In this document: one piece after another, positions 32,509-48,738 of the stretch
How positions within the stretch are numbered: position 1 is the stretch's first letter
How the letters are laid out: each line of letters opens with the position of its first letter
Assembly: GCA_046327955.1 (NCBI GenBank)
Contig: JAXLXP010000007.1
Coordinates: forward strand, 193,136-257,135
DNA: 64,000 bases
Direction: 5' to 3'
Source of the DNA: Candidatus Binatia bacterium
GTDB taxonomy: Bacteria; Desulfobacterota; Binatia; DP-6
Notes under the pieces: generated by a model
Seen by the model: the letters and a program-made list of their open reading frames with translations, nothing else
Told to the model about the DNA's origin: nothing
Database searches by the model: none
Program-made: the position numbers and the translations under genes

Positions 32509-33684
32509 ATGCGCGCGCTCGACTCGCTGAACGTCCAGGGCAAGCGCGTCTTCATCCGGGCCGACCTGAACGTCCCGCTCGAGGGCGGGACGGTCGCGGA
32601 CGCGACCCGGATCGACGCGACACTGCCCACGCTGCGGTGGGTGCTGGACCACGGCGGCCGCCCGATTCTCGCCTCCCACCTCGGCCGCCCCAAGGGCACG
32701 CCCGATCCGAAGTACTCGCTCCGCCCGGTCGCGGCCTACCTCCAGCAGACGCTCGGCCGGCCCGTCCACCTCGCTTCCGACTGCGTCGGACCCGCCGCCG
32801 AGGCGACCGTCGCCGCCGCGACGCCGGGCGAGGTCGTGCTGCTCGAGAACCTCCGCTTCCATCCCGGCGAGGAGAAGAACGACCCCACCTTCGCCGCCCA
32901 GCTCGCCCGCCTCGCCGACGTCTACGTGAATGACGCCTTCGGCGCCGCGCACCGCGCGCACGCGTCGACGGCGGGGATGGTCGTCCACTTCGCCGAGCGC
33001 GCCGGGGGTCTGCTCCTCCACCGCGAGGTCGAGGTGCTCGGACGCCTGCTCGCCGGCGCCGAGAAGCCGTTCGTCGCGATCCTGGGTGGCGCCAAGGTCT
33101 CCGACAAGATCGCGGTGATCGACCACCTGCTCGATCGGGTGCAGGCGCTGCTGATCGGCGGCGCGATGGCGTACACGTTCCTCAAGGCGCAGGGAAAGCC
33201 GATCGGTCGCTCGCGGGTCGAGGAGGACCGCGTCGAGTTGGCGCGCACGGTGCTCGCCGACGCGGCCGCCAAGCGCGTCGCGCTGTTGCTGCCGGTCGAC
33301 CACCTCGCGGCCGACAAGCCGGAGGCCGGTGCGACGACCCGCATCGTCTCCGCCGACGCCTTCCCGGCCGACCTGCTCGGGGTCGACATCGGTCCAGCGA
33401 CGGCCGCCCGCTACGCGCAGGAGATCGAGACCGCGCGCACGGTGCTCTGGAACGGCCCGATGGGCATCTTCGAGATCGAGGCGTTCAGCCGCGGGACGAT
33501 GGCGATCGCCGAGGCGCTCACGCGCTGCAAGGGCACGACGGTCGTCGGCGGCGGCGACTCGGTCGCCGCGCTCGAGAAGTCGGGGAAGACGAACGCCGTG
33601 ACGCACGTCTCCACGGGCGGCGGCGCATCGCTCGAGTTCCTGGAGGGCCGCACGCTGCCCGGCGTGGCGGCGTTGGAGGGCTGA
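32509..33684 (+). CDS. pgk: phosphoglycerate kinase
   Basis: KRVFIRADLNVPL...ASHLGRPKG... Confidence 0.9.
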   Translation: MRALDSLNVQGKRVFIRADLNVPLEGGTVADATRIDATLPTLRWVLDHGGRPILASHLGRPKGTPDPKYSLRPVAAYLQQTLGRPVHLASDCVGPAAEATVAAATPGEVVLLENLRFHPGEEKNDPTFAAQLARLADVYVNDAFGAAHRAHASTAGMVVHFAERAGGLLLHREVEVLGRLLAGAEKPFVAILGGAKVSDKIAVIDHLLDRVQALLIGGAMAYTFLKAQGKPIGRSRVEEDRVELARTVLADAAAKRVALLLPVDHLAADKPEAGATTRIVSADAFPADLLGVDIGPATAARYAQEIETARTVLWNGPMGIFEIEAFSRGTMAIAEALTRCKGTTVVGGGDSVAALEKSGKTNAVTHVSTGGGASLEFLEGRTLPGVAALEG

Positions 33685-33689
33685 TATCC

Positions 33690-34448
33690 GTGAGTCGCGT
33701 CCCACTACTGGCCGGCAACTGGAAGATGCACTGCACCCGCGCCGAAGCGACGGCCCTCGCCCGCGCGCTCGCCGAACGCGTCGGCCGGGTGACCGGGCGC
33801 GAGGTGCTCGTCGCCCCGCCGTTCACCGCGCTCGAGGCCGTGGCCGCTGCGATCGCGGGCACCGCCATCCGCCTGGCGGCGCAGAACGTCCACTGGGAGG
33901 CCAAGGGAGCCTTCACCGGCGAGATCTCGACCGCGATGCTGCGGGACGTGGGCTGCACGCACGTCATCATCGGGCACTCGGAGCGCCGGCAGTACTTCGG
34001 CGAGACCGACGAGACCGTGGCCAAGCGCGTCGGCGCGGCGCTGGCCGCCGGGCTCACCCCGATCGTGTGCGTCGGCGAGACCTTGGCCGAGCGCGAGGCG
34101 GGCGCGACCGCCGCCGTGATCCAGCGCCAGATCGCGGGCGGCCTGGCCGGGCGGTCGGCGGCCGACCTCGACCGCTGCGTCGTGGCCTACGAGCCGGTGT
34201 GGGCAATCGGCACCGGCAGAACCGCCACGCCCGCGCAGGCGCAGGAGGTCCACGCCGCGATCCGAGCGCAGCTCGCCGGACTCGGCGGCGCCGCGCTTGC
34301 GACGCGGGTCCGCATCCTCTACGGAGGAAGCGTGAAGGCGGACAACGTCGACACGCTGATGCGCGAGCCCGACATCGACGGCGCGCTCGTGGGCGGCGCA
34401 AGTCTCGACGTCGCGGCCTTCGCGCGCATCGTCGGGTTCGAGGGGTGA
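33690..34448 (+). CDS. tpiA: triose-phosphate isomerase
   Basis: LLAGNWKMH...IGHSERR...AYEPVWAIGTG. GTG start. Confidence 0.9.
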   Translation: MSRVPLLAGNWKMHCTRAEATALARALAERVGRVTGREVLVAPPFTALEAVAAAIAGTAIRLAAQNVHWEAKGAFTGEISTAMLRDVGCTHVIIGHSERRQYFGETDETVAKRVGAALAAGLTPIVCVGETLAEREAGATAAVIQRQIAGGLAGRSAADLDRCVVAYEPVWAIGTGRTATPAQAQEVHAAIRAQLAGLGGAALATRVRILYGGSVKADNVDTLMREPDIDGALVGGASLDVAAFARIVGFEG

Positions 34449-34455
34449 TCCCATC

Positions 34456-34818
34456 ATGTTGATGACGCTGGTGACGTACGTCGTGCCCGTGATCCACGTG
34501 GCCTCGTGTCTCTTCCTGATCGGGGTCGTGCTGTTGCAGACCGGCAAGGGGGCGGACGTGGGGGCCGTGTTCGGCGGTGGCAGCCAGACGCTGTTCGGCT
34601 CGGGCGGCGCGGGCAACTTCCTCACCAAGCTCACCACCGGCACCGCGATCGCGTTCATGGTGACGTCGCTGCTGCTCACCTGGGGCCAGAGCCACTCGAA
34701 CACGTCGCGCCTGCTCGAGAAGCTCCCGGCGGCGACGGAGTCCGCGCCGGCAGCGAGCGCACCGCAGGACACGGCACCGGCCAACGACAAGCCGGTCGAT
34801 GCCCCGGCAACCGAGTGA
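34456..34818 (+). CDS. secG: preprotein translocase subunit SecG
   Basis: Two TM segments, ...LQTGKGADVGAVFGGGSQTLFGSGGAGNFLTK. Confidence 0.85.
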   Translation: MLMTLVTYVVPVIHVASCLFLIGVVLLQTGKGADVGAVFGGGSQTLFGSGGAGNFLTKLTTGTAIAFMVTSLLLTWGQSHSNTSRLLEKLPAATESAPAASAPQDTAPANDKPVDAPATE

Positions 34819-34879
34819 ATCGGCGCGCTGCGCTCGACAGCGGTCGTCCCCTCTGTTAGGAAATCCCGCTCCACCCCCT

Positions 34880-34964
34880 GCGAGGATGGCGGAACTGGCA
34901 GACGCGCTAGTTTGAGGGGCTAGTGGGCTAATAACCCGTGGGGGTTCAAGTCCCCCTCCTCGCA
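34880..34964 (+). tRNA. tRNA-Leu (anticodon GAG)
   Basis: GCGAGGA...GGCGGAACTGGCAGACGC...CTAGT-TTGAGGG-GCTAG...long variable arm...GGGGGTTCAAGTCCCCC...TCCTCGCA, 85 nt. It closely resembles enterobacterial tRNA-Leu. Confidence 0.85.
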
Positions 34965-35789
34965 TTTCGCAGCCCTTGCGTTTCCGCGTACTTGCGATGC
35001 CCTTGTCCCTCCCCCTCGGCGAGGGAGGGACAATTTGCCTGCTGTCCCGCTCGCGAACAGGGCCGGTTCCAGCTTTGCGAAGCGACGTAGCTCGCTCTCA
35101 CCTTCGGTTGGTAGCCACCGACCGTAGTGCCTTCGCAGCGTCGCGTAGCTGACGCCGGTCTGCGTCTCCAACCATGCGATCTTGACGCCGAGGGAGAGCG
35201 CCGTCGAGACGAACGTGTCCTTGGTGCAGTAGATGCCACGGACCCGGACGCCGAGCACGCGCAGGCAAGCGTACCAGTAGCGCGATGCGAACGCCTTTGG
35301 CTCGATTGGCTGCCCCTCGGTCGTCGTGAAGACGGGCGTGTTGGGTGCCACCCGAAGAGGTTGGATCGCGTGGAGCACGCGCACGCTTTCAGGGAACAGC
35401 TCGACCCAGCGATCCGCGCTCGCGGTCTTCGGCGCGCCGTACTCGTAGAGGTGCCGGCTCCGCTGGACGTGCAGGCGAGGGCCGTCGAAGTCCACGTCGC
35501 CCCACTGCAAGCCAGCCGCTTCGCTCGGGCGCATCCCGGTCCAGAAAAGAAGATGCACAAGGGCGTGGTACGGCAGGTGCGGTCGCATGCGGACCGACTC
35601 GGCGCCCCCGCGTCCGACGTGGAAGCCGAAGCGCTTGCGCTCGAACCAACCGAGGATGCGCTGGCGCTCCTGCGGCGTGAATGGGTCCGGACCTGGCGGG
35701 GTCCACTTCGGCCACTTCAACCGGCGCGGGAAAGGATCGACGAGCAACACGCGGTCGTCAAGTGCCTGGGCGATCACGGCGCCGAGCGT
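34920..35789 (-). pseudogene. int: tyrosine integrase, C-terminal (catalytic) fragment, disrupted by an IS256-family insertion
   Basis: ...TLGAVIAQALDDRVLLV...TGMRPSEAAGL...LRRHYGRW. The reading frame rejoins the N-terminal fragment across the 8-bp target duplication. The 3' end overlaps the tRNA-Leu 3' end on the opposite strand. Confidence 0.7.
34942..34968. repeat. attL: 27-bp direct repeat (tRNA-Leu 3' end) GGGTTCAAGTCCCCCTCCTCGCATTTC
   Basis: Identical copy at 46716-46742. Confidence 0.8.
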
Positions 35790-37227
35790 GGGGATGTCCC
35801 GGAATCTGCTGAACGGCTGACCTGAAACCAGAGAGAGCGGCGGCTCCTTTCCCCGTCCTGTAAAGGACGGGTCACCACAACCAAGGGAAAGGAAGCCGCC
35901 ATGAAGAGAAGTCGCACAGGATCGTCCGCAGAGAAAGCCCCCGCCGCCCCGCCGGCCGTGAGCGTGCAGGTGCCGCTGCCGCTGATCGACGTGCTCGCTG
36001 ACATGAAGACGTCGTTCTTCGGTCTCTGCCTGACCGCGGGCCAGCAGGTCTTCCAGGCGATGATGGAACAGGACCGAGAGCAACTCTGCGGGCCGAAGAA
36101 TCTCCCGAATCCCGATCGGCGCGCCATCCGAGGGGGCAGTGCACCGAGTGAGGTCGTGCTCGGGGCGGCGCATCTCGATGCCCCGGCTTCGAGCGCGCAG
36201 TACAGACGGCAAGGAGCTCCACTTGCCGAGCTTCAGCTACGCCAGCGCCCACGACCCACTCGACGCCTACACGCTCGAACAGATGGCCATTGGCGTCGCC
36301 ACGCGGAAATATCGTCGCACGCTCGATCCGCTGCCGGGCCACGTGACCGAGCGAGCGAGCTCGAAGAGCGCCGTGTCCCGTCGCTTCGTCGCTCTCACCA
36401 GCCACAAGCTCACGACGTGGATGGCGGCGCCCCTCGATGGCCTGGACATCCGCGTCCTCTTCATCGACGGACTCCATTTCCGGGATCACGTGATTCTCCT
36501 GGTCCTGGGCCTCGATTCGCACGGGGTGAAGCATGTGCTCGGCCTGCGGGAGGGACGACGGAGAACGCGACAGTGTGGGGATTGCTCGCCGATCTGCGGC
36601 AGAGAGGTCTCGATCTCGACCGCCCGGTGCTGTTCGTCATCGACGGCGGGACGGGACTTCGGAAAGCGATCGAGACTCGTGCGGGGACGCGGCCCTCGTC
36701 CATCGCTGCCACGTCCACAAGAGACGGAATGTCTTGAGCATCTGCCCGAAGCCATGCGGCCTCGGGTGAAGAAGGCGATCAACGAAGCGCACGGCCTGGC
36801 CGATGCCGATCTCGCGCGGCGGCGTCTCGAGCAACTCGCTGCCGGTCTCCACCGCACGCACCCTGGAGCTGCCGCTTCCCCTTCGAGAAGGACTCGACGA
36901 GACGCTGACCCTGCAACAGCTCGGCGTCTCCAGCGCCCTCTACCGCACACTGCGCTCGACGAACGCGATCGAGAACCTCAACGGCCTCGTCGGGCACTTC
37001 GTCCGCAACGTGCGACGATGGCGAGACGGCCACATGCTGGTCCGTTGGATCGCTGCGGGGCTCGAAGAGGCACGTCGAAGCTTCCGTCGCGTCCGTGGCT
37101 ACACGGACATTCCGAAGCTGATCGCCGCACTCGATCGCCGAACTCTGGACACGAAGAAGGAGGTCGCGTAGACGCCCGTCAACCGAGCCGCCGCTCTCGA
37201 CCGTTCAACAGAGAACGGGACGACCCC
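35790..37227. mobile_element. IS256-family insertion sequence (1438 bp) with ~27-bp terminal IRs (GGGGaTGTCCCGgaatCTGcTGAACGG) and 8-bp TSD CCGAGCGT
   Basis: TSD copies at 35782-35789 and 37228-37235. Mutator-type transposase homology spans the interior. Confidence 0.7.
35901..37171 (+). pseudogene. IS256-family (mutator-type) transposase, interrupted by at least 5 frameshifts
   Basis: Homologous segments lie in four frames: ...LCGPKN...SEVVLG | GRRISMPRLRARSTDGKELHLPSFS...LFIDGLHF...GLDSHGVKHVLGL | TTENATVWGLL...FVIDGGTGLRKAI | VHKRRNVL | LPEAMRPRVKKAI... | ...STNAIENLNGLVGHFVRNVRRWRDG. One shift maps to a G4 homopolymer. Confidence 0.7.
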
Positions 37228-37721
37228 CCGAGCGTGCCGCTGATGATGTTGCGGACGTACTTCACGGACCGCCCGCGAGCGAACAGCTCGGCTTGCAAAC
37301 CGCGGATGATCGCGGGCGTCAGGTCGGTCAGAGAGACGTGACCGACCAGCCTGGCGATGATCTTGCCGTGCCGCACGTAATCGCGCGCCTGCGCCTTCCG
37401 CACCTGCGGGGGACGGTTGTAGGGCAAGAACGACTCGCGGAGGTACTCCGCAAGCGTCGGCCCGCGGGACATCGCCTGGTCCGGTTCTCGCTCGGGGCGT
37501 GCGAAGTAGGACCGGAGTGTCGAGATGGGATCACGCCCCTTCTTGAGCACCACACCGACCGTCGAGCAGAGCGGCGCGAGACGGGCTCGATTCTCAGCAG
37601 TGTCGTCGAGTCCCGTCGAATACGCGACGTGCCGCACGCGGCCGTCCGTCACAGCGACTCGGAAGCGGAGACGCAGGCGGCCCTTGTCCGCGTCAACCGA
37701 GCAACCGGCGTAGACCTTCAT
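37228..37721 (-). pseudogene. int: tyrosine integrase, N-terminal fragment (arm-binding/SAM-like domains), separated from its C-terminal part by the IS256 element
   Basis: MKVYAGCSVDADKGRLRLRFRVAVTDGRVRHVAYSTGL...VKYVRNIISGTL then runs into the IS IR. Confidence 0.7.
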
Positions 37722-38295
37722 GCGCTCGCTCGATGTTCAGCACGGGGTGCGACACTCGCGCGTCTACCATGGCAGCCAGCTCGCCGGCCACTCCGCCCTC
37801 GATCAGCTCGACGATAGCGGCCCACTTGAGCAGGACGCTTCCACCCCGCCCCGTCGGTTGGAACCAGTGGACACCGTGTCGGAGCACGCCGCGGCGCTGC
37901 ATGCGCCGGATCGCCTGAACGCTCCACGGGGTGAGCTGGGCGAGCTGGTCGGCCGACAAGTATGGCGGAATGGTCACCGCTGGCCGGTGTGATAGCGCTC
38001 CTCGTTGAGCTTCAGGTACCGCGCTCGTCCACTTGGACGGTGCGGGCCCGGTTGGCGCGGATGGTCCGGCCGTCCCCGATCTCCTGCGGACGGGGAATCG
38101 GCGTCGCGTCGGCGCGTCGGTCTCTTCGCGAACCAAGTGCAACGGCGTGAGGATGATCTCTCGGCCGCACCCCGGGCACGCGAGCGGGCCCCAGCCTGAC
38201 GGAAGCGGCGTATCACACCGCCGACAGCGACGGCCGAGGAGGTGGTTCTCGACACGTCTCGGATTCGCCACCGTGAGGTCAGGGCGGTCGCTCAC
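37693..38295 (-). CDS. zinc-ribbon + C-terminal excisionase/MerR-like HTH domain protein
   Basis: CRRCDTPLPSGWGPLACPGCGR zinc ribbon; C-terminus ...LSADQLAQLTPWSVQAIRRMQRRGVLRHGVHWFQPTGRGGSVLLKW. The proposed GTG start 38295 overlaps the DUF3631 stop (GTGA). Confidence 0.55.
   Translation of the reverse strand: MSDRPDLTVANPRRVENHLLGRRCRRCDTPLPSGWGPLACPGCGREIILTPLHLVREETDAPTRRRFPVRRRSGTAGPSAPTGPAPSKWTSAVPEAQRGALSHRPAVTIPPYLSADQLAQLTPWSVQAIRRMQRRGVLRHGVHWFQPTGRGGSVLLKWAAIVELIEGGVAGELAAMVDARVSHPVLNIERAHEGLRRLLG
38130..38245. repeat. copy 1 of a ~115-bp diverged direct repeat encoding a Cys4 zinc-ribbon segment (copy 2 at 38308-38425)
   Basis: About 70% nt identity; encodes RCRRC..LPSGWGP..CP.CGR...TPL.LV.E on the minus strand in both copies. 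Confidence 0.6.
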
Positions 38296-39710
38296 GGCTC
38301 GCCCGCCTCCGTGACCAAGCGTAACGGCGTGAAGTGTCCGACGCGCCCGCATCGCGGGCAGCCGATGGGCCCCCAGCCGGAGGGGAGTCCCGCAGTGCAG
38401 CGCCGACACCGGTGCGGGCGACCTGGCGGCCGACCGGCGCCCTTGCTAACGGGCTTCTTCCGTAGGGGGGCGACGACGTGACGAGGTGACAAGCCTTGTG
38501 CCCCAATGCATTCGTCGCCGTTCGACGACGTGACGTCACTGCGCGCGTCACCTTGTCTATCAGCCCGGAAACCCGTGTCTCGCGCAGGTTGTCTCGTCGT
38601 CACGTCGTTGAGATAGCGGGCGAAGGCATCCGCGAAGTCTGTTCGCTCAAAACCTTTGCCGCGCCGGTGGCCGGCGCGGACAGTCTTCGAGACGATGCCG
38701 AACGGACGGAGGAGCTGCATGAGCTTGTAGCCTGGACCGCGGGCGTCCTTCGTTTCGAGCGCCCCTCCCCACCACTCTCCCCACGGCTCGCCCTCGCGCT
38801 CGACGAGCGCCGCGAGGAGTTCGACGGTGAGGAGCCGGGCCGAGCGCGACTCGGCGAAAACCTGGCTGATTGCCCGCAGGAGCTGAACACCGGCACTCTC
38901 GGTGTCCTGTTGCCCGCCGTGGAGTTCCACGGCGGCTCGTCGCGCCCGGGCTGGCCAGTCGCCGCCCGCGAGGTCCGCTATCGCAAGCAGAGGCTCCCAT
39001 CCCTCCGCCGCCCGATCGTCAAGTGCCGCGGGCGTGGTCGGCGTAGGCCCTCGGAGAGTCGGCGTCGCTTCGGCTCCCCAGGCTGCGACGGCCGCCCGCA
39101 GCGGCTCGGCTTCCGCCCTAAACGTGGCAAGGCGGAAGCGGGCCACGGTCTCGGCCTTCTTCTTCCGGCGGAGCGGAATCGTAGTGCCGCGATCCGTCAC
39201 CGTATCCGGAAGAGCGCCGATAGCTGCTATGATCTTCGCGCAGAAGACTTCGAAGTCCACGAGTGTTTGGGTCGAGCCTTGACAGCGCGATACGACCGCG
39301 CCACGCCGGTTGCCGGCGTTGAGAACCGCGCGGAGGCCCTCCGTACCTTGGTCGGCCTTCTTGCCAAAGATGGTGTCAACTTCGTCGAGCAAGAGCGTCG
39401 GCCGATCGCGCGCGATCTTGCGGAAGAGGACTGCCTCGCTCGGTCGAACGAGACGCCATGCCCGCGGGACGAGTCCCTCCAGCACTTCCAGCAGCCGGGT
39501 CTTGCCGCACCGCTTCTCGGGTGAGGTCACCACGAGGTACGGCGTCACGTCGAATGCCTCGATCGCGTGCGCGTGCGCGATCCAGAGCGCGATGGCGACG
39601 AGGGCTGGCTGTGGGATGATGACGTAGCGCGCGATGAGACACTCGACGTCGGCAAGGAGGTCCGCGAGGCCGCGCTGCTCTTCCGCAACCTGCTGCAGGT
39701 ACGTTCGCAT
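38292..39710 (-). CDS. DUF3631-family protein (primase-associated C-terminal domain, found in integrative/plasmid replication modules) with C-terminal zinc ribbon
   Basis: MRTYLQQVAEEQRGLADLLADVECLIARYVIIPQPALVAIALWIAHAHAIEAF...LLDEVDTIFGKK... Start ATG 39710 overlaps the upstream small-ORF stop (ATGA). Confidence 0.65.
   Translation of the reverse strand: MRTYLQQVAEEQRGLADLLADVECLIARYVIIPQPALVAIALWIAHAHAIEAFDVTPYLVVTSPEKRCGKTRLLEVLEGLVPRAWRLVRPSEAVLFRKIARDRPTLLLDEVDTIFGKKADQGTEGLRAVLNAGNRRGAVVSRCQGSTQTLVDFEVFCAKIIAAIGALPDTVTDRGTTIPLRRKKKAETVARFRLATFRAEAEPLRAAVAAWGAEATPTLRGPTPTTPAALDDRAAEGWEPLLAIADLAGGDWPARARRAAVELHGGQQDTESAGVQLLRAISQVFAESRSARLLTVELLAALVEREGEPWGEWWGGALETKDARGPGYKLMQLLRPFGIVSKTVRAGHRRGKGFERTDFADAFARYLNDVTTRQPARDTGFRADRQGDARSDVTSSNGDECIGAQGLSPRHVVAPLRKKPVSKGAGRPPGRPHRCRRCTAGLPSGWGPIGCPRCGRVGHFTPLRLVTEAGEP
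38308..38425. repeat. copy 2 of the zinc-ribbon-coding direct repeat (C-terminus of the DUF3631 protein)
   Basis: See 38130-38245. Confidence 0.6.
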
Positions 39711-39892
39711 CACCGGCCTCGCTGCGGGTCGACGGACGAGGCTAGAGCCGTCCGTGTTGCGGCTTCGGTCATCCTGCCCATCGCGGTGCGAGAGTCGGCG
39801 GATGGCCGCCGCCATACATCTTCGAGGAAGGCGGCGAGCGCCCCTGACTCGTCCCCGCGCATGACGACTCGGCCGAGCGCGCGTCTGCTCAC
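39710..39892 (-). CDS. hypothetical small protein (60 aa), translationally coupled on both sides
   Basis: GTG start overlaps the upstream stop (GTGA); its stop overlaps the DUF3631 ATG (ATGA). Confidence 0.35.
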   Translation of the reverse strand: MSRRALGRVVMRGDESGALAAFLEDVWRRPSADSRTAMGRMTEAATRTALASSVDPQRGR

Positions 39893-40215
39893 TCTCGTGC
39901 CCCCCGGAGCCCGACAAACACAGCGACGTCGGCCTCGTCCAGCCGAACAGCGCGCAGTTGAACCCGGCCGGTGCTTGCGAGATCGTTGAGCGCCCGATTA
40001 ACCGCCGCGCGCGTCCACCGGCGGCGCCACGGGGGTACGGAATCGATGAGGGTCGAGTAAAGACGGCAGAGGGAAACCCGCTTGCCACCGAAGCTCCCAA
40101 GAACCGCATATAGGCTGTCAGCGAGGACGGCGCGCACGGGCGAGAGGGTTTGCCGTCGTCGCGGCGTGCGTGCCGGGCTCTTCCCGCTGCGCCGGTGGGG
40201 CGATATGGTCCGCAT
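39889..40215 (-). CDS. hypothetical protein (108 aa; C-terminal region resembles a winged-helix DNA-binding fold)
   Basis: ORF fitting the operon; no confident domain. Confidence 0.4.
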   Translation of the reverse strand: MRTISPHRRSGKSPARTPRRRQTLSPVRAVLADSLYAVLGSFGGKRVSLCRLYSTLIDSVPPWRRRWTRAAVNRALNDLASTGRVQLRAVRLDEADVAVFVGLRGARE

Positions 40216-40280
40216 CGGATCGTCGACCGCGAGCGCCGTGGCCTGCGAGGTAGGCTCCCCGGGCTACGGCGTCCGCGATC

Positions 40281-40469
40281 TTAGCGGGTGGGCTTGGTTT
40301 CCTCGCCCTGCGTGGCGATCCAGCGGCGGAGCGCCTCAGCTGGCACACGCACCGATCCCCTCAGCCGCACGCTGGGCAGGTCCCCGGCGGCGAGGAGGTC
40401 GTAGACCGTGGATCTTCCAAGACCCAGCAGCTCGGCGACCTCAGGCGGGCGGAGCAGAAGCTTTTCCAT
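40281..40469 (-). CDS. xis: excisionase/AlpA-like helix-turn-helix DNA-binding protein (62 aa)
   Basis: MEKLLLRPPEVAELLGLGRSTVYDLLAAGDLPSVRLRGSVRVPAEALRRWI. SD GGAGG. Confidence 0.65.
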   Translation of the reverse strand: MEKLLLRPPEVAELLGLGRSTVYDLLAAGDLPSVRLRGSVRVPAEALRRWIATQGEETKPTR

Positions 40470-40637
40470 ATCCCCTCCTTCCTTCGAGAGTCTCGTCCCC
40501 TCGGTCTTCTGAGGACTAATCGGCCCCCCTCGTAGCGCAGGGACGCAGCTTAGTCCCTCGGTCGACACCTCAAAACCGGCCAATGGTCGACGGGTCAAAC
40601 CCGGCCAATGGCGACGGCGCGGATGTCATGATCGCTC

Positions 40638-41397
40638 TTACTGCGTAGCGCCCTCCGCGGGCAAGGCATGGTGGCGCATCCGCCAGCTGCGCGGGCCGCA
40701 CTTGAGGACGTGGGCGTGGTGGAGGAGCCGATCGAGGAGCGCCGTCACGGCGGCGGTATCGCCGAGGAGCTTGCCCCAATCGTCGACCGGGCGGTTGGAG
40801 GTGAGGAGCGTGCTGGCCCGCTCGTAGCGGCGCATGACGAGCTCGAGGAGGTCTTCGGCGGCGGTGGCCGGGAGCTTCCGCATGCCGAGGTCGTCGATGA
40901 TGAGGAGTGGGACGGTGGCGAGCTCGGTCATCTTCGCGCGGCGGGTGCCGTCGACGCTGGCCTCGGCGAGCTCGTCGAGGAGGCCGTGGGCCTCGGTGTA
41001 GCGGACGCGGTAGCCCTGCTGGATGGCGGCATGGCCGATCGCCTGCGCGAGATGGCTCTTGCCGGTGCCGGGTGGGCCGAGGAAGAGCGCGTCTTCGCGC
41101 TGGGCGATGAAGCGGCCGGTCGCGAAGCTCGAAGACGAGCGTCCGGTGGAGCTTCTTGTTGAAGTCGAAATCGAAGGTGTCGAGGGTCTTGTCGGGATCG
41201 CGGAAGCGCGCGTGCGTTCGGCGCCGGGCGAGGAGGCGATCTTGGCGCCGGACGAGCTCATCGCTGACGAGCGTGGCGACGAGATCGAGTGGCGCGAGGC
41301 GCTCGGCCTGCGCTTGGCGGAGCCGCGCTTCGAGGACGTCGGCCATCCCCGAGAGCCGGAGCTGGCGGAGGGCGCGATCGAGTTCGGGCAGCGTCAT
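40638..41397 (-). pseudogene. istB: IS21-family helper ATPase IstB, single +1 frameshift
   Basis: MTLPELDRALRQLRLSGM...KLHRTLVFEL | (shift) ATGRFIAQREDALFLGPPGTGKSHLAQAIG...LLDRLLHHAHVL. Confidence 0.7.
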
Positions 41398-43000
41398 TCG
41401 GGAGTCTCCTTCTCGGCGCGGCGATCGAGGAGATCGCGGTAGAGGGTGAGCTGACGGATGAGCGGATCGACCTGGGTGAGCGTGAGCGGGCCGGCGACGC
41501 GCCGCTCGAGATAGCGGCGCACGAAGCGATAGGTCGGGACGCCGAGGTCCCGTGCCGCGGCACACGCGGCCTCGACGGCGGGCACGCCGTGGTGCTTGGC
41601 GAGGGCGAGGACGCCGAGGATGCGGCGGACGCCGGCGGCGCCGTCCTGCTGATGGATCGTCGCGCAGAGCAGGCCGATCGCCCGCCCCGCGCCGGTCGCG
41701 CGCGCGAGGACGGCGAGGACATCGGGCGGCGTCCGCCGGGGGCGATCGGCGGCCGCAATGCGATGCTGGCCGCGCGCCTGCCAGCGATGCTCGCGCAGGA
41801 GCTGCCCCGTGCGCGGATCGAGGAGGCGCACGGTCTGGCCATCCCACTGCACCGGGGAGGCGCTGGCCGAGATAGCCCGGCGGGGCGCCGTAGTACGCGC
41901 CGTCGACCTCGACGCAGCCGTCGAGATGCACGGTCCGCGTCCCGTGCTGGTAGTAGCGAAACGGCGTGAGCGGCAGCGCTCGCAGCGCGGGCTGCTCCTC
42001 GGCAAACATCGCCGCCACTTGCCGCTTCGTCGTGCCGTGGATGCGCGTGTCGGCCCAGCGCGTCTCCCAGTGATCGAGGTAGGCCTGGCCGTCCTCGAGG
42101 TTCTCGAAGCGCATGCCGCGCAGCGGCGTCTTCTGCGCATGGCCGACGCTCGCTTCGACCTTGCCCTTGCGATCGGGATGGCGGACCCGACACGGGAGGG
42201 CCACGGCGCCGTAGTGCGCGAGCACGTCGCGGTAGAGGGGATTGACCGTCGGGTCGTACACGTCCGCGGCGAGCACGCCCTCCTTGAGATTGTCGAGGAC
42301 GACCGTCTGCGGGACGCCGCCCAGCTGGCGAAACGCGCGCTCGTGAAGTTCGGCCCAGATCTGGCTGCTCGATTTCCAGGTGAGCAGCCGGACGGCCTTG
42401 CGGCTGTAGCCGAGCGTGAGGACGAAGAGCCGCGTGCGCCGGTATTTCCCGGTCTGCGGGTGGCGCACCATGGCGCCGTCGCCGTAGTCGACCTGGGCTT
42501 CCTCGCCGGGCGCCGTCCGGATCACGGGATGGGCATCGGGCGGCGCGACCGCGCGCAGCCGATGGACGAAGCGTTGGACGCTCTGCGTAGCCGGCGGCGA
42601 AGCCGTGGCGGTCGACCAGGTCCTGCCAGATCGCCATGGCGTTGCGGCCGCGGCCGAGCGCCTCCGTGATCAGCTCGCGGTACGGCTCGCACGTGCTCGC
42701 CGCCGGGCTCCGGCCGGGGCGCGGGGGGCACGGCGGCGGCCCCGAGTCGGTCGACACCCCATTGGCCGGTTTTGCCGTCGATCCCGGCTCCGAGTCGGTC
42801 GACACCTCGTTGGCCGGTTTTGATGGTGGTCGTCGGCCCCAGCTGCCCGGCGGCCGCACCGCGATCCCCGCGGCCTTCAAGTAGGCGCTCGCCGTCTCGC
42901 GGCGCACGCCCGTCTCGTCTTCGATGCGCCGCAGCGGCCAGCCGAGTCGGCCGAGGGCGAGGACCTGCTGTCGTTTCGTGTCGCTCAAGACGTTGGCCAT
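41394..43000 (-). pseudogene. istA: IS21-family transposase IstA, two +1 frameshifts
   Basis: MANVLSDTKRQQVLALGRLGW...DRHGFAAGYA | SVQRFVHRLR...IRTAPGEEAQVDYG...DDE region...GYLGQRLP | VQWDGQTVRLLDPRTGQLLREHRW... Confidence 0.7.
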
Positions 43001-43204
43001 CCTGACGAGGGGACCCCAGTCCCCATCGTCCGTTCAACGTCCGAGCCGTCCGCCTATTGGCCGGTTTTCAGGTGTCGATCATTGGCCGGTTTTGGGTGTC
43101 GACCGAGGCTTAGTCAAGCGGCGCTACTTACCTTGGTGAGACACGGCACCGCTTGCTCGCTCTCTATTCTACCCCTCGACAGGCACAGCCTGGAAGGCGT
43201 GCTC

Positions 43205-43720
43205 TCAGATTGGCAGAGAACGGGGACGACGGACCGCGACCCGCGCTTCAGGCGCATCCTCTTCGACCCCGTCAACATCGATCGTCCGTGGCCCCTCCGC
43301 CGGACGACGTTGCCTGGGCCACTCGCCCGTGGCGGCGAAATGATCCAACTCCTCACCAGTCCAGCCATCGAACACGCGATCGGCCTCGGCCTCGTCGCGC
43401 CCATACGCACCCGTAAGCCGGTACGCCATGTCGAGGGCTTTCAGGCCGAGAGCCTTCTCTCGCGGGTCAGCCGATCGGTACAGAGCCAGGAAGTGCGCGT
43501 GTATCCTGTGCAGCTTCCGGTCACTGATGCCCTCCCGGTCGAGCAGCTCGGTCACCGTGGCCTGCACTGTAGGGGATCGGAGGGTCTCGACCGCGATGGC
43601 ATGAGCGGTGTCCGGATCGCGGGTGTCATAGGCGACCAGCGCCGCGGCCGTCCCGTTACCGGTGGCGATGTAGTGCTTGAGGAAGCGGCGTTGCTTCAGG
43701 GTGAGGGAGCCTCGTCCCAT
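43205..43720 (-). CDS. phage terminase small subunit (Terminase_2-like), orphan
   Basis: LTLKQRRFLKHYIATGNGTAAALVAYDTRDPDTAHAIAVETLRSPTVQATVTELL. No large-subunit gene is adjacent. Confidence 0.6.
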   Translation of the reverse strand: MGRGSLTLKQRRFLKHYIATGNGTAAALVAYDTRDPDTAHAIAVETLRSPTVQATVTELLDREGISDRKLHRIHAHFLALYRSADPREKALGLKALDMAYRLTGAYGRDEAEADRVFDGWTGEELDHFAATGEWPRQRRPAEGPRTIDVDGVEEDAPEARVAVRRPRSLPI

Positions 43721-43795
43721 AGGGCAAGCCTACCACACTAGCGGAGCCGCATCCTAGCGCAGGCAGAATGAGTCGAGCGGGTGTGGCCTCCGGCC

Positions 43796-44776
43796 CTACC
43801 AGAACGGCGTAGCCCGCACAGGACGGCCGAACTGATCCATGCCGACCCCGAGCCCATACGCATTCGGCTTCACGGGCCCGATGATCGCCTCGCCCTGCTC
43901 CGTCCGCCACGAGAACGGACGGCCCGTTGCATCGGCGTTGACGCCGGGCCCGTAGGCGTCGGCTCGACCCGGGCCGAGCAAGCCGGATGTGGCGGCGCCT
44001 AGGTCAATTGCGCGCGCTCGTGGAGGTGATGCTCCGGGAGCCAGCCCCACGAGCGGGACCCAGCCCTTCGTAGGTCGCACCGCGGCGAAGCGTCCCAAGT
44101 AGGTTCCTTCGGGGGATTCCTGCCTGAACGTCCCTTCAAGGATGTCGCCCTGACGCGCCCCCTCGATTTCGACTGCGCCGAGAGTGTGTCCCCCGGATTC
44201 CAGGATGCCGCGGAGGGAGAGCCTGCCGCCGCGGTCGTCCCCAAGCAGCGAAGCGCTGCCATCGAAGCCGAGCGTCTGATTCCGGAAGATGACGCGCGCG
44301 GTGAGCCCGGCAGCTTGGCGCCGGAACATCATCCGCAAGACGCCGAGCTGACCCTCGGTCGGCAGCTCGTACGCGCCGACCCACTCGCCGTCGGCAACCA
44401 TGGCACCTTCTGCCACGGGCAGTCCGGTCGGAGCACGCTCGTCTCTATCCGCAGCCGGCGATCCAGTCGCGTCGCCTATGGGCATAAAGTCCTGTGCCGC
44501 TTCTCCCCGACCGCGGCAATACTCAGCCGGTACCCAACCCCGCGCCCGCATGCATCGTTCCCAACGTGCCCTTAGGCCGGCCTCTTGGGCGATGCACGCG
44601 AGCGCCCCAACGCAGAAAGACGCGCCGTTGCTCTCGCGCTCACACGTCACATACTCCGTGAAGAAATCTCGCTCAGTGGCGCCAGCGCGCGACCAGTGGA
44701 CGGCGCGGCGGCAGCACCCGCCGGGCGAGAGGAGGACCACCGCTGCCACTAGGACTGGGACCCGGAAGGTGCGCAT
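43796..44776 (-). CDS. hypothetical lipoprotein (signal MRTFRVPVLVAAVVLLSPGGC), Cys-rich N-region, Gly-rich C-terminal repeats
   Basis: ORF with lipobox. Repeats GPGVNADATGRPF / GPVKPNAYGLGVGMDQFGRPV. Confidence 0.5.
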   Translation of the reverse strand: MRTFRVPVLVAAVVLLSPGGCCRRAVHWSRAGATERDFFTEYVTCERESNGASFCVGALACIAQEAGLRARWERCMRARGWVPAEYCRGRGEAAQDFMPIGDATGSPAADRDERAPTGLPVAEGAMVADGEWVGAYELPTEGQLGVLRMMFRRQAAGLTARVIFRNQTLGFDGSASLLGDDRGGRLSLRGILESGGHTLGAVEIEGARQGDILEGTFRQESPEGTYLGRFAAVRPTKGWVPLVGLAPGASPPRARAIDLGAATSGLLGPGRADAYGPGVNADATGRPFSWRTEQGEAIIGPVKPNAYGLGVGMDQFGRPVRATPFW

Positions 44777-44867
44777 GAGGGCGCCATCTACCCTGGCGAC
44801 TTCGCTGCGGCTAGAGCCGCACTCGCCGGCGGCAAGAGCTGGTACCGCCACCGCCAATGGCTGCACG

Positions 44868-45155
44868 TTACGCATGCCCGAGGTCACGGAAGGAAACTGC
44901 CCGGCGCTGCAGACAGTCGACGTTGAACGCCTCGCCGAAGAAGCGCGACGCTCCCGTGCAGGCGCGGAGTGTCCCCCGCTTGCACGTCACGCTCCCCACG
45001 GCGAGGGAAGGGGAGAGAACCTTGAGGTTGGCCGTGAGGCGCACGAAGCCGCCTTGGACGCTAGCGATGGTCCCCGCGTACCTGAGGCGTGTGGCGTCAG
45101 CCCGAGCGGGGCCAAGTACAAGGATAGCAAGCACGATGACGGCAAGCATCCTCAT
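44868..45155 (-). CDS. hypothetical small secreted protein (95 aa)
   Basis: Signal peptide MRMLAVIVLAILVLGPARADA. Confidence 0.4.
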   Translation of the reverse strand: MRMLAVIVLAILVLGPARADATRLRYAGTIASVQGGFVRLTANLKVLSPSLAVGSVTCKRGTLRACTGASRFFGEAFNVDCLQRRAVSFRDLGHA

Positions 45156-45574
45156 GGACGCCGTATAACATTCGTGGCAATGTGGGCGCTATAGGGGTGG
45201 GCGGTCCCGCCAAGGGCTCTGAGCTTTCACCAAACCCTCTCGGGGGCGCCGAACCTATCCCAGGGCGAGCGCCCTGGGAGGAGGGTTGTCAAGCCGCCCG
45301 GGGCCCCAATGCGCCACTGTTTGCGGAAGTGAGCTAGCGAGCGTGCTAGCTAGCATGAGGTGCCACCTCCGACGGGGTCGGGCCTCCGGGGCCGGGTGGA
45401 TAGGGGCGCTTCGGGTCCAGCCACACGAGAGACCGAGCCCGCGGAGCGATCGACCGCCCCCCCGGCTGGCGGCCGTAGCTTGCTGAAACGCCTGGCGATA
45501 GGAGCCAGTTGACGGGGTCGGTTCTGAGGGGCTAACGTGCCTATGAGAACAGAGGTTCTCGAAGGAGCATTGCA

Positions 45575-46546
45575 ATGGGCGACGCCCCGACAAGCCTGGT
45601 ACCGAATGCGGCCGGTGACCTGGTCCACCCCGAGACCCTTCCCCCGGACCGTAACCCGGCCCGAGTCTACCTGACCCGGCTCGGGCAGGGGTCCCGGCGA
45701 ACGATGGCGGCGGCCCTCGACACGGTGGCCGGGCTCGTCACGGGCGGGGCCTGTGACGCCGATAGCCTCGCCTGGGCCCGTCTCCGCTACCAGCACACTC
45801 AGGCGGTCCTGGCGGCGCTCCGGGGCCGCTACAAGCCCGCGACGGCGAACAAGCACCTGGCGGCCCTCCGCGGGGTCCTCAAGGAGTGCTGGCGGCTCGG
45901 GCTCATGGCGGCCGACGACTACCAGCGGGCGACCGACCTGCAGCGGGTGAAGGCGACGACGCTCCCCCGGGGCCGCGCCCTCATGCGGCGTGAGCTGCGC
46001 GCCCTCTTCCGCGTGTGCCGAGCGGACACCCGGCCGAGCGGCGCCCGCGATGCGGCGCTCCTGGCCGTCGTCTACGGCGCCGGGCTCCGCCGCAGCGAGG
46101 TGGTCGCCCTCGACATGGCCGACTACGCGCCCGAGACCGGCGCGCTGACGATCCGGGCGGCGAAGGGCCGCAAGGACCGCCTCACCTACGCGACGAACGG
46201 GAGCCGGATCGCCCTCGACGGCTGGCTACGGGTGCGCGGGACGGAGCCCGGGCCGCTCTTCTGGCCGGTCGACCAGGCGGGGCGGATGACCGCGCGGCGC
46301 CTGACGGCGCAGAGCGTGCTAGAGCTGCTCGCGCGCCGAGCCCGGCGGGCGCGGGTCGCCCGGTTCAGTCCGCATGATCTCCGGCGCACGTTCATCAGCG
46401 ACTTGCTCGACGCGGGGGCGGATATCACGACCGTGGCGGGGCTCGCAGGGCACGCGAGCGTCACGACCACGGCGCGCTATGACCGGCGGGGTGAGGAGAC
46501 GAAGCGGCGGACGGCGGAGCTGCTCGTGGTGCCGTTCGAGGGCTAG
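45575..46546 (+). CDS. tyrosine-type site-specific recombinase/integrase (XerC/D-like, 323 aa)
   Basis: ...AVVYGAGLRRSE...RFSPHDLRRTFISDLLDAGADITTVAGLAGHASVTTTARYDRR carries the R, HxxR and Y motifs. The 3' end lies 170 bp from attR. Confidence 0.8.
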   Translation: MGDAPTSLVPNAAGDLVHPETLPPDRNPARVYLTRLGQGSRRTMAAALDTVAGLVTGGACDADSLAWARLRYQHTQAVLAALRGRYKPATANKHLAALRGVLKECWRLGLMAADDYQRATDLQRVKATTLPRGRALMRRELRALFRVCRADTRPSGARDAALLAVVYGAGLRRSEVVALDMADYAPETGALTIRAAKGRKDRLTYATNGSRIALDGWLRVRGTEPGPLFWPVDQAGRMTARRLTAQSVLELLARRARRARVARFSPHDLRRTFISDLLDAGADITTVAGLAGHASVTTTARYDRRGEETKRRTAELLVVPFEG

Positions 46547-46715
46547 GTGGGGAGAGCCCCCTACTGCGTGCGACACCTAGCTAGCTTGCACAGCTCCGAT
46601 TCCGCACAACCACCGGACCTTCGTGATTGTCCCTCAGAGGGACAATTCATGCCCACAGACGCCCTCTGACGCCTACCGCCGCCCGCGATTTCGTTGACTC
46701 TTCGGGCGACCTGCC

Positions 46716-46742
46716 GGGTTCAAGTCCCCCTCCTCGCATTTC
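46716..46742. repeat. attR: second copy of the 27-bp tRNA-Leu 3'-end repeat
   Basis: GGGTTCAAGTCCCCCTCCTCGCATTTC, identical to 34942-34968. Confidence 0.8.
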
Positions 46743-46800
46743 CAATCCCGGGCAATCCGCCCGTCCGCGCGCTGCGCCGGAGACGCCGCCCGCGACCCGG

Positions 46801-47664
46801 CTACCGGCGCCCCGTGTCGTCCACGCCGTAGAGCCGCGCCATGAGCTGCGACACCAGGCCCCCGACGGGCAGCGCCACGCCCGACGTGCGCGCCAGCTCG
46901 AGCGCCCACGCGAGGTCCTTCTCGGCCACCTGCATGAAGCCGCGCAGCGCCGCCTGCATGGCCCCGCTGTGCCGCGTCTCGTCGGGTACCTTGTGCAGCG
47001 CGAGGTACGACAGCATGAGCGGCGTGAGCTGGCCGTTCGACTGACCGGCCTCCTCCAGCACTTCCTGCGGAAGCCCGACGGCCCTCGCCAGCGCGAACGA
47101 CTCGTAGGCCGCCGCCCACTGGATGTACGTGACGAGGTTGAGGCACAGCTTGAGCTTCGCACCGTCACCGAGCGCACCAGCGTGGATGATCTTCGCTGCG
47201 CTGGCCTCGAACACGGGGCGCGCCACCGCGAGCGCCGCGGCGTCGCCGCCGACCAGGAACGTGAGCTGGCGCTGCTCGGCGCGCGCAGCGCCACCGGTGA
47301 CGCACGCATCGAGCACGGCCACACCCGTGCCGGCGGCGGCCTCCCCCAGCGCGATCGCCGTCTCGGGAAGGATCGTGCTGTGGATGACCACGACGGCTCC
47401 GCGGCGTGCGCCCGCGAGCACGCCGTCCTCCCCGGACATGACCGCGCGGACGTGGCGGTCCTCGGGCACGCAGATGCCGATCACGTCGGCGTGCGCGGCC
47501 ACCTCGCGCGGAGAGGCCGCCGCGCGCGCACCGGCTGCGACGAGCGCCTCGACCGGCGGCCGGGCGACATCGTACACGCTGAGCGCGAATCCCGCCCGGA
47601 CCAGATTCACGGCCATCGGCCTGCCCTGGTTCCCGAGGCCGATGAATCCCGCGCGGACCGTCAC
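46801..47664 (-). CDS. NAD(P)-dependent oxidoreductase, 3-hydroxyisobutyrate dehydrogenase family
   Basis: AGFIGLGNQGRPMAVNL... Confidence 0.8.
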   Translation of the reverse strand: MTVRAGFIGLGNQGRPMAVNLVRAGFALSVYDVARPPVEALVAAGARAAASPREVAAHADVIGICVPEDRHVRAVMSGEDGVLAGARRGAVVVIHSTILPETAIALGEAAAGTGVAVLDACVTGGAARAEQRQLTFLVGGDAAALAVARPVFEASAAKIIHAGALGDGAKLKLCLNLVTYIQWAAAYESFALARAVGLPQEVLEEAGQSNGQLTPLMLSYLALHKVPDETRHSGAMQAALRGFMQVAEKDLAWALELARTSGVALPVGGLVSQLMARLYGVDDTGRR

Positions 47665-47739
47665 TTGCTGCGCCCCTCCGTCTGTGCGACGCGCATCCGA
47701 TCACGTCCCCTGGACCGCGCACACGTCGACGGGTGGGAG

Positions 47740-48498
47740 ATGAGCTATCCTGGGATCGAAGGCAAGGTCGCAGTCGTCACCGGCGCCGGCGGCGGCATCG
47801 GGCTCGGCTATGCCCGCGCGCTGGCTGCCGAGGGAGCGAAGGTGGTCGTCGCCGAGATCGACGCGGCCCGGGGCGAGGCGGCTGCCGCCGCGATCCGCGG
47901 CACCGGCGGGCACGCCACCTTCGTGGCGGTGGACGTGAGCCGCGAGGACTCCACCCGGGCCATGGCCGCACGGGCGCTCGAGACCTACGGCGGCATCGAC
48001 TTGCTGGTGAACAACGCCGCGATCTTCCGCGACATGCGGCAGGAGTCCCTGCTCACCGTCGACTGGACCTACTACCAGGCGTTCCTGAACGTGAACCTGA
48101 ACGGCGCGCTCCTGTGCGCGCGCGCGTGCGTGCCGAGCATGGGCGCGCGCGGCGGCGGGGCGATCGTGAACCAGTCCTCGACCGCAGCGTGGATGGGGGC
48201 CGGATACTACGGCCTGGCGAAGCTCGCACTGAACGGCCTCACGCACTGTTTGGCGCGCGAGCTCGGCCCGATGAAGATCCGCGTGAATGCGATCGCGCCC
48301 GGCCCCACCGACACGGAGGCCTTGGCAAAGCAGGTGCCCGCCGCGTACCGCAACCAGCTCGTGGCGCAGCTCCCGTTGGCGCGCCTGGGCACGCCCGAGG
48401 ACATGGCGCACGCCTGCCTGTTCCTGCTCTCCGACGCGGCGGCCTGGATCACGGGGCAGGTGCTCGCCGTGGACGGCGGGCAGATCGTTCGCGCGTAG
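47740..48498 (+). CDS. SDR-family oxidoreductase
   Basis: KVAVVTGAGGGIGLGYA...NNAAI...YGLAKLAL... Confidence 0.85.
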   Translation: MSYPGIEGKVAVVTGAGGGIGLGYARALAAEGAKVVVAEIDAARGEAAAAAIRGTGGHATFVAVDVSREDSTRAMAARALETYGGIDLLVNNAAIFRDMRQESLLTVDWTYYQAFLNVNLNGALLCARACVPSMGARGGGAIVNQSSTAAWMGAGYYGLAKLALNGLTHCLARELGPMKIRVNAIAPGPTDTEALAKQVPAAYRNQLVAQLPLARLGTPEDMAHACLFLLSDAAAWITGQVLAVDGGQIVRA

Positions 48499-48738
48499 GG
48501 GTTCTCGGCGCGAGGCGGGTCCGACGTCGCCGTGCGGCCGAAGGCGGGGCTCGAGGCCGTGGCGCTGTGGCAGCGCTGGGGCCTGCCCCTGACGCTCGAC
48601 GTGGTGGCGGTCACACGGGCAGCGACGGCAATCGCGGATGCGTTCGCGATCCCGGCGACCGAGGGCGGCATCGTGCCGTTCGCGCTCCTGCCCGCGCCGA
48701 CGCCCGCGTGCCGCTGGAGCGGGTCGCCGGGGACAGCG

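Follow-up and report, generated by a model that had tools for sequence, protein, structure and literature searches.

A probable single tRNA-Leu(GAG) integrative element with one disrupted and one intact tyrosine recombinase gene in a Candidatus Binatia contig

We analysed a 64-kb window, meaning the whole stretch of DNA considered here, of the Candidatus Binatia contig JAXLXP010000007.1; all coordinates are those of this window, and L-numbers denote the related loci that were compared with it. Downstream of secG, an island bounded by 27-bp direct repeats starts within a tRNA-Leu(GAG) gene and carries two tyrosine recombinase genes, int1 and int2. Several of its features are seen directly in the sequence: the repeats, the splitting of int1 by an IS256-family insertion sequence (IS) with a 9-bp duplication, an IS21-family element upstream with a 7-bp duplication, and arm motifs that match at the two ends. 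We consider it probable that the interval is one tRNA-Leu(GAG) integrative element of an uncharacterised family, inserted by Int1 and now immobilised, and that Int2 did not create its attachment (att) sites. The features on which this reading is built are as follows.

34456-34818, plus strand: secG, left flank.
34880-34964, plus strand: tRNA-Leu(GAG), intact, the integration target (Rfam RF00005, 49.1 bits, full model; 34879-34965 by ARAGORN).
34942-34968, plus strand: attL core, one copy of the exact 27-bp direct repeat, which takes in the final 23 nt of the tRNA and 4 nt downstream.
34920-35790, minus strand: C-terminal fragment of Int1 with the catalytic domain; its stop lies inside the tRNA at 34920-34922.
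35003-35033: Int-proximal arm palindrome TTGTCCCTCCCCCTCGGCGAGGGAGGGACAA, within the 3' tail of int1 at a distance of 34 bp from the attL core.
35791-37227, plus strand: IS256-family element of 1437 bp inserted in int1, with the transposase in three frames (from 35901, from 36139, and 36770-37171).
37237-37721, minus strand: N-terminal fragment of Int1 with the presumed arm-binding part and the core-binding part.
45545-45560: palindrome GAGAACAGAGGTTCTC, directly before the ribosome-binding site of int2.
45575-46546, plus strand: Int2, an intact, simple Xer-like tyrosine recombinase of 323 residues in which R, HxxR, H and Y are all present.
46627-46645: distal arm palindrome TTGTCCCTCAGAGGGACAA, 70 bp from the attR core, sharing its half-site with the int1-proximal arm.
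46716-46742, plus strand: attR core, a displaced tRNA 3' fragment that equals attL at 27 of 27 positions.
46801-47664, minus strand: NAD-binding dehydrogenase gene, right flank.

In the window, the 27-mer GGGTTCAAGTCCCCCTCCTCGCATTTC is found exactly at 34942-34968 and 46716-46742 only, in direct orientation, and no third copy with three or fewer mismatches was detected, none being expected by chance. The first-pass annotation had described the repeat as the last 27 nt of the tRNA; the exact twofold repeat was confirmed, whereas the share of the tRNA in it is the 23 nt given above. The exact direct repeat together with the intact tRNA-Leu(GAG) gene upholds its proposal of an attL/attR signature and of an element integrated in the tRNA. 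The concern that the second copy might be part of a second tRNA gene was checked with ARAGORN and Rfam; neither tool called a tRNA at 46716-46742, indicating that this copy is a displaced 3' fragment. Identity in the attL core begins at GGGTTC, a boundary common to L063 and L147. By Islander-type criteria, the interval has an intact tRNA with a displaced 3' fragment downstream in direct orientation, an integrase inside, and a length of 11.8 kb within the range of 2-200 kb. The predicted attB junction is GGGTTCAAGTCCCCCTCCTCGCATTTC followed by CAATCCCGGGCAATCCGCC, and the predicted attP junction is TTCGGGCGACCTGCC, then the 27-bp core, then GCAGCCCTTGCGTTTCC. Per 500-bp window, the G+C fraction of the interval is 0.64-0.76 (mostly 0.65-0.69), and that of the flanks is 0.67-0.76 (mostly above 0.70). 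Another tRNA gene in the window, tRNA-Ala(GGC), lies at 3669-3742 on the minus strand.

The left flank is TIM-secG, and the tRNA gene lies directly downstream of secG. The relatives of the right-flank dehydrogenase (48 loci) are from metagenome-assembled genomes (MAGs) of Myxococcota with 56-77% identity, plus one outlier at 41%. Exact-protein look-ups with Int2 and SecG returned only short contigs of one sample (SRR26348421). An independent short-read contig of this sample (L001) reproduces the attR side, 43079-53833, exactly and breaks inside the right end of the IS21-family element. Another (L050) covers 33543-34909 and breaks within the tRNA, ahead of the repeat; this break could be due to other tRNA-Leu variants, or to mixed occupied and empty sites in the population.

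Because the genome has about 70% G+C, mechanical open reading frames (ORFs) are unreliable, and a codon-position G+C plot was therefore used to tell the coding frames. We found that the coding signal of the minus-strand ORF at 34920-36212 ends at about 35880, the upstream third being antisense read-through into the IS256-family element; past about 35880, three successive plus-strand frames each match the IS256-family transposase (NCBIfam transpos_IS256). The 9-bp target duplication CCGAGCGTG is located at 35782-35790 and 37228-37236, and the terminal inverted repeats are imperfect. The element thus has what is expected of the family, namely a Mutator-type transposase (here frame-shifted), a length of about 1.3-1.5 kb, imperfect terminal inverted repeats and an 8-9 bp duplication. 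Deleting it with one copy of the duplication joins 37721-37237 to 35790-34920 in a single ORF of 451 residues (Int1), with GATCACGGCGCCGAGCGTGCCGCTGATGATG as the IS-free junction sequence. The long integrase that the first-pass annotation had taken for an intact gene is therefore a split one (34920-35790 and 37237-37721), the insertion having been overlooked. Int1 is inactivated by the IS256-family insertion.

The reconstructed Int1 has 302 homologs among 5.8 billion proteins, with 45-62% identity among the matches listed, and about half of the 120 homologs listed (the best 120 of 302) cover at least 95% of its length, which validates the reconstruction. The HxxR box reads YxxK in 116 of 120 homologs, and Arg I and Lys are conserved. 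In the alignment with the canonical recombinase profile, for which the hhalign probability was low, K352 is placed at Arg II and Y384 is the nucleophile. The DUF3596 / Arm-DNA-bind_2 domain (PF12167) is annotated on many Int1 homologs and was unreported for the reconstructed Int1 at E <= 0.1. In a published classification, a Tyr in place of the first His of the RKHRH pentad is a trait of IntDes, and IntBPP-1 carries DUF3596 (Smyshlyaev et al. 2021, PMC8138268). Compared by description, the Int1 family shares the His-to-Tyr change with the former, and many of its members share the DUF3596 domain with the latter; however, the second Arg is Lys throughout the Int1 family, which is unmentioned in the IntDes description of that paper, and the hosts of Int1 are not Desulfovibrio. 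In the PDB, the Int1 profile aligned to Tn1549-type integrases no further than their core-binding and early catalytic part, and PDB single-sequence searches with Int1 and with the DUF3631 protein of the island found nothing.

The C-terminal ORF of Int1 crosses the arm palindrome and the attL core before it stops in the tRNA. Its tail ends in ...DLNPHGLLAH in the prophage (attL) form and in ...DLNPAGRPKSQRNRGRR in the reconstructed attP form, so that only the last 6-12 residues differ. Across the family, 73 of 120 homologs end in the antisense translation of the T-arm and acceptor stem of tRNA-Leu, and these tails are read in two frames (..CEEGDLNPHG.. and ..RGGGLEPPRVL..). Since two different frames are used, the overlap with the tRNA is a property of the family at the DNA level and not a conserved peptide, and the tail is probably not functional as protein. 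Mx8 and SSV-type integrases also have attP inside the int coding sequence (PMC6070905, PMC4383910); the likeness is that the int1 ORF spans the arm site and the att core, family-wide, and that integration alters the 3' end of the gene. For Mx8, an altered C-terminus is reported to change activity, whereas here the last 6-12 residues change in a tail that is read in two frames across the family; the target is also tRNA-Leu here, and the cargo is not a phage genome. A tblastn search of 50,697 phage records with Int1 gave 219 weak matches, the best 20 of which had at most 28% identity and included no myxophage.

We compared Int1-family loci at tRNA-Leu and found that the reading frame runs into the tRNA-Leu gene in seven of eight related loci. 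The Int1 homologs of L058, L063, L145/L146, L148 and L149 lead straight into antisense tRNA-Leu (GAG or CAG); those of L060 and L061 finish in this same tRNA sequence at the edge of their contigs, which stop within about 25 bp of the int stop. Owing to this overlap, integrases of this family are easily missed or truncated by gene callers and island finders. In L063, an intact Int1 homolog of 432 residues (1767-3065) overlaps tRNA-Leu(CAG) and is uncalled in the JGI annotation. The L063 island lies in this tRNA-Leu(CAG) and is bounded by a 24-bp repeat starting at the same GGGTTC position, and in L147 the identity to the tRNA ends at the same boundary. We considered L147 as a possible attP form and rejected it, as no partner palindrome was found beyond the core. 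Searches for an attR-copy repeat in L058, L060, L061 and L145-L148 found none within the sequence covered. The secG-tRNA-Leu(GAG) locus is also occupied by Int1-type elements in L145/L146 and L149, which are metagenomic genomes, and it looks like an integration hotspot. Their cargo differs considerably: L145/L146 have ParA/ParB with a Rep_O-like gene, and L149 has an AAA_25 ATPase, a serine resolvase and a transposase. In L060 and L061, the Int1 homologs stand at the end of elements with Replic_Relax, TraG/TrwB-like and VWA genes, showing that the Int1 module also serves conjugative or mobilisable elements.

The two arm palindromes tie the distant ends of the island together. The half-site TTGTCCCTC/GAGGGACAA has four copies in the window, arranged as the two palindromes at 35003-35033 and 46627-46645, and is found nowhere else in it. 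The island L063 has a motif of its own, GGGGGCCAA, with two direct copies from 47 bp of the attL core and a palindrome 71 bp from the attR core; it is absent elsewhere in 17 kb of L063. A palindrome particular to each locus is present 35-60 bp from the core in five other Int1 loci (L060, L061, L147, L148 and L149). The pattern points to arm-type protein-binding sites that would differ between elements and match within one. Because the same element-specific palindrome is present on both arms, both ends of the island belong to one Int1-type attP, with Int2 inside.

The first-pass annotation had also reported a XerC/D-like integrase running toward attR, and this gene was found intact as int2, so that two tyrosine recombinase genes do point at opposite ends. 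It is the sole plus-strand gene outside the IS elements and ends 170 bp before attR. Int2 consists of core-binding and catalytic domains only, without an arm-binding domain. Its G+C content at third codon positions (GC3) is 0.92, which is host-like (0.92-0.93), compared with 0.74-0.83 in the rest of the island. In length (about 320 residues), in its two domains and in its R/HxxR/H/Y residues it resembles Xer-like and plasmid resolution recombinases, and its best NCBIfam matches are XerC and XerD; it differs from these in scoring far below both cutoffs (115.6 bits against 335 for XerC and 93.3 against 330 for XerD), in lying inside a mobile island, and in belonging to a family found in many unrelated contexts. 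That family gave 6464 matches at E < 1e-10, many with 50-80% identity, including an identical Int2 in a Candidatus Binatia MAG; no relative of Int2 was found in IMG/VR. We examined 82 other Int2 loci and found that 81 are without Int1 and that only 6 have any tRNA gene, a tRNA beside an Int1-type island being present only in L063. Across all 83 loci, no conserved neighbour gene was found beyond small subclusters.

The palindrome at 45545-45560 reads GAGAAC-N4-GTTCTC and contains GAAC-N4-GTTC, a shape like that of the Cheo/LexA box. A GAAY-N4-RTTC palindrome is located within 150 nt upstream of 16 of 81 Int2 homologs, compared with about one expected; these are mostly the closest relatives (L062, L064-L067 and L115 among the loci) and do not include L063. 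The palindrome upstream of int2 may thus be an operator. The 9-mer CTAGCTAGC has only two exact copies in the window, at 45346-45354 (220 bp upstream of int2) and at 46577-46585 (31 bp downstream); as sites for Int2, these motifs were set aside, since they are not conserved around Int2 homologs, and no dif-like site for Int2 was identified. At L062 7134-7858 and L064 5888-6585, the closest Int2 homologs outside tRNA islands follow a RadC-like gene and a small same-strand ORF. Two Int2-family paralogs are close together in L085, L086 and L110, those of L110 being a convergent pair at 10001-10897 (plus) and 10974-11879 (minus).

The remaining features of the island, which measures about 8.1 kb without its two IS elements and 11.8 kb with them, are as follows.

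37693-38409, minus strand: ORF with a zinc ribbon and an Xis-like part, overlapping the start of int1; the C-terminal part of about 100 residues begins at about 37959.
38292-40109, minus strand: DUF3631 / RepAM-type replication protein (Pfam PF12307, E = 7e-45).
39889-40215, minus strand: ORF of 108 residues between the helix-turn-helix (HTH) and replication genes, with a coding-frame signal and no family match above threshold.
40281-40469, minus strand: excisionase-like regulator of 62 residues, HTH_17 / AlpA type (HTH_17 55.7 bits; Phage_AlpA 23.8 bits, cutoff 21; PHROG 66).
40556-43108, minus strand: IS21-family element of 2553 bp, intergenic between the TerS-like gene and the HTH gene (upstream of the latter).
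43205-43720, minus strand: TerS-like protein of 171 residues (Pfam Terminase_2, profile positions 1-54 of 141 only).
43796-44776, minus strand: cargo protein of about 326 residues with the signal-peptide or lipoprotein-like N-terminus MRTFRVPVLVAAVVLLSPGGC and no family match; the mechanical ORF runs to 44887.
44868-45155, minus strand: cargo protein of 95 residues with the signal-peptide-like N-terminus MRMLAVIVLAILVLGPARA.

Read from attR to attL, the minus-strand order is the 95-residue protein, the protein of about 326 residues, the TerS-like gene, the IS21-family element, the AlpA/Xis-like HTH gene, the 108-residue ORF, the DUF3631 gene, the zinc-ribbon/Xis-like ORF and the IS256-split int1. 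The excisionase-like HTH gene seen in the first pass was confirmed by its HTH_17 score of 55.7 bits and by its match to PHROG 66, a family of excisionases and transcriptional regulators, and it opens the leftward gene string. A small protein of about 100 residues is located just upstream of every Int1 homolog and overlaps it (tblastn matches in L051, L058, L060, L061, L063 and L145-L149); it is the best candidate for the excision or directionality factor. The DUF3631 protein with its zinc ribbon, which had also been named, is present with the motifs RCGKT (Walker A, about 39512) and LLLDEVD (Walker B, about 39395) and a C-terminal CxxC..CxxC ribbon. A local tandem duplication is seen between 38307-38411 and 38125-38226 (66% identity, E = 3e-10): the zinc ribbon that closes the DUF3631 gene (CRRCTAGLPSGWGPIGCPRCGR) reappears about 180 nt further downstream (CRRCDTPLPSGWGPLACPGCGR), where it is read in frame with the next ORF and joined to the Xis-like domain. 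Prim-Pol, PriCT, Toprim or DnaB_N domains are found as fusion partners in homologs of the DUF3631 protein. Its relatives occur in 52 IMG/VR contigs, including prophage-like ones with portal and large terminase genes, so that the module is not diagnostic of conjugative elements. One of these contigs, L166, is a prophage piece in which the portal, large terminase and DUF3631 genes accompany an integrase adjoining tRNA-Leu(CAG).

The two IS elements reported in the first pass belong to the IS256 and IS21 families, with target duplications of 9 and 7 bp. The IS21-family element has repeated terminal motifs ATTGGCCGGTTTTG and the 7-bp duplication CTTAGTC at 40549-40555 and 43109-43115; istA and istB are each frame-shifted over more than one frame, and the family's features of istA with istB, multiple terminal repeats and a short target duplication are present. 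The leftward string is cut off by this upstream insertion. The presumed terminase small subunit is supported in part: the Terminase_2 match covers its N-terminal DNA-binding part, as do the equally partial PHROG 51 and 2606 matches, while the rest of the profile is unmatched, and the related loci searched yielded no terS homolog. Both cargo proteins have signal-peptide-like N-termini, in agreement with their description as secreted.

The island was also compared with other integrated elements. DUF3631 is RepAM, the pMEA300-type initiator of actinomycete elements, while pSAM2 uses RepSA (PMC3218068). The proposed likeness to pSAM2-type elements is therefore half right: the replication lead to actinomycete elements holds, and the pSAM2 type does not, since the replication protein here is RepAM and not RepSA, and no island ORF has a Pfam match to an FtsK/SpoIIIE-type transfer gene. 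What is shared with the RepAM/RepSA elements is a co-directional string of Xis-like HTH gene, DUF3631 gene and integrase gene that ends in int at the 3' end of a tRNA. Actinomycete integrative and conjugative elements differ from the island in their FtsK/SpoIIIE-type Tra gene, and its host is not one of the Actinomycetales (it is labelled Binatia, and the flank relatives are from Myxococcota MAGs); prophage-like contigs also use DUF3631. Satellites of the phage-inducible chromosomal island (PICI) type resemble it in the size of about 8.1 kb, the integrase at one end, the AlpA-type HTH, the replication protein, the TerS-like gene and the lack of capsid and lysis genes. However, the int gene of PICIs diverges from the alpA operon, whereas the genes of the string here all run toward int; the TerS match is N-terminal only, and no terS homolog was seen in the related loci. 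A satellite-like lifestyle is possible on this gene content.

In the element that we consider probable, the ancestral leftward string toward attL would have comprised the AlpA/Xis-like HTH gene, the 108-residue ORF, the RepAM-type P-loop protein, the small Xis-like protein and Int1. Int1 would recombine a core, about 23-27 bp long, matching the T-arm and acceptor 3' half of tRNA-Leu, so that integration restores the tRNA; both this core and the int-proximal arm would be contained in the tail of the int1 reading frame at its 3' end. The palindromes about 34 bp and 70 bp on either side of the core would serve as arm-type sites, bound by the N-terminal domain of Int1 or by the Xis-like protein. 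The excised circle would replicate via RepAM, and the TerS-like protein might redirect packaging by a helper phage, or simply bind DNA. Int2 is most likely a passenger; our best guess for its role is multimer resolution of the replicating circle, or else that it is a solo recombinase gene inserted into the element.

Several observations weigh against this reading. Reference genomes yielded 48 relatives of the right-flank gene, none of which showed an empty tRNA-Leu site or kept the secG/tRNA-Leu neighbourhood. The frameshifts seen in the IS transposases could stem from true decay or from errors of assembly. The two palindromes could also be terminator hairpins, the predicted hairpin energy of the int-proximal one being -21.6 kcal/mol; as the sole explanation, plain terminators were rejected because the half-site is shared and the copies in L063 are direct on one arm. 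Finally, the pairing recurs in L063, where the small upstream protein accompanies an intact Int1 homolog (49% identity) and an Int2 homolog (73%) is oriented to the tRNA as Int2 is here, all else being different. As the Int1 family is rare, this pairing is unlikely to be chance, and Int2 may be more than a passenger.

The pairing in L063 bears most on the idea of a two-recombinase element, one of those put forward in the first pass, in which Int1 and Int2 would be functional partners convergent around attP by design, Int1 serving, for example, for integration, and Int2 for the control of excision or the resolution of multimers of the RepAM replicon. With 302 Int1 matches in 5.8 billion proteins, one co-occurrence in 82 Int2 loci is well above chance, and other Int1-type elements carry plasmid-maintenance modules, namely ParAB (L145) and a serine resolvase (L149). 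Yet no Int2 was found within the sequence covered at eight other Int1 loci (L051, L058, L060, L061, L145, L147, L148 and L149), just as Int1 is missing from 81 of the 82 other Int2 loci. Int2 and attR are separated by 170 bp in this island and by 2.9 kb in L063, the GC3 of Int2 is unlike that of the rest of the island in both, and neither a site nor a neighbour linked to Int2 is conserved. Because the recurrence in L063 is unlikely to be chance, we keep this partnership as a minority possibility, itself unlikely.

We think it quite unlikely that the island is the remnant of a temperate phage, that is, a prophage integrated by Int1 that lost its structural genes and kept int, xis, the replication gene and the small terminase gene. 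The TerS-like gene and the 52 IMG/VR contigs with DUF3631 relatives, L166 with its portal, large terminase and integrase at tRNA-Leu(CAG) among them, are consistent with such an origin. However, profile searches of the island ORFs detected no phage gene other than the TerS-like one, the relatives of Int1 carry plasmid- or conjugation-type cargo and not phage cargo, and an IMG/VR search with Int1 returned a single weak relative with 41% identity. Both att arms are intact, so that any deletion would have to be internal.

Tandem arrays are a familiar finding at tRNA genes (PMC4383910), and the integrases at opposite ends, together with the GC3 of 0.92 for Int2 against 0.74-0.83, would fit an Int1 element and an Int2 element that entered the same tRNA-Leu successively, with the middle att site later lost. 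The first pass had offered such tandem or nested acquisition, and the tandem form is disfavoured by our results: besides the lack of a third core copy, the best ungapped internal match to the core is 17 of 27 positions, no better than control regions, so no att remnant rises above background; the palindrome specific to the Int1 element lies outside Int2, beside attR, as on the other outer arm; and the Int2 family has no tRNA association. We regard this course of events as very improbable. Least credible is that Int2 generated the 27-bp repeats and Int1 is merely an old broken gene: Int2 is intact and 170 bp from attR while Int1 is disrupted, but in seven of eight related loci it is the Int1-family ORF that reads into tRNA-Leu, with the core boundary unchanged, a tRNA is hardly ever found beside Int2-family loci, and Int2 has no arm-binding domain, yet arm-type repeats flank the core.

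Taken as it stands, the island is an ordinary decayed integrative element crippled by two IS elements, and one of its two integrases explains its ends. Its annotation is corrected in three respects: the integrase is split, the replication gene is RepAM and not of the pSAM2 type, and the TerS match is partial. Element-specific arm palindromes can tie distant ends to one attP, which makes it simple to distinguish one element from a tandem array. If the unlikely partnership of the two recombinases were true, Int1 and Int2 would form a recurrent module of replicative islands that target tRNA-Leu, in which Int2 would have a dedicated role in resolution or directionality. Int2 itself represents a very large and highly conserved family of solo Xer-like recombinases, which occurs in a wide variety of unrelated settings and, in two cases, within Int1-type islands. 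Int1 represents an uncharacterised integrase family of more than 300 members from uncultured Myxococcota-like bacteria, which has YxxK in place of HxxR and targets tRNA-Leu, often at secG.

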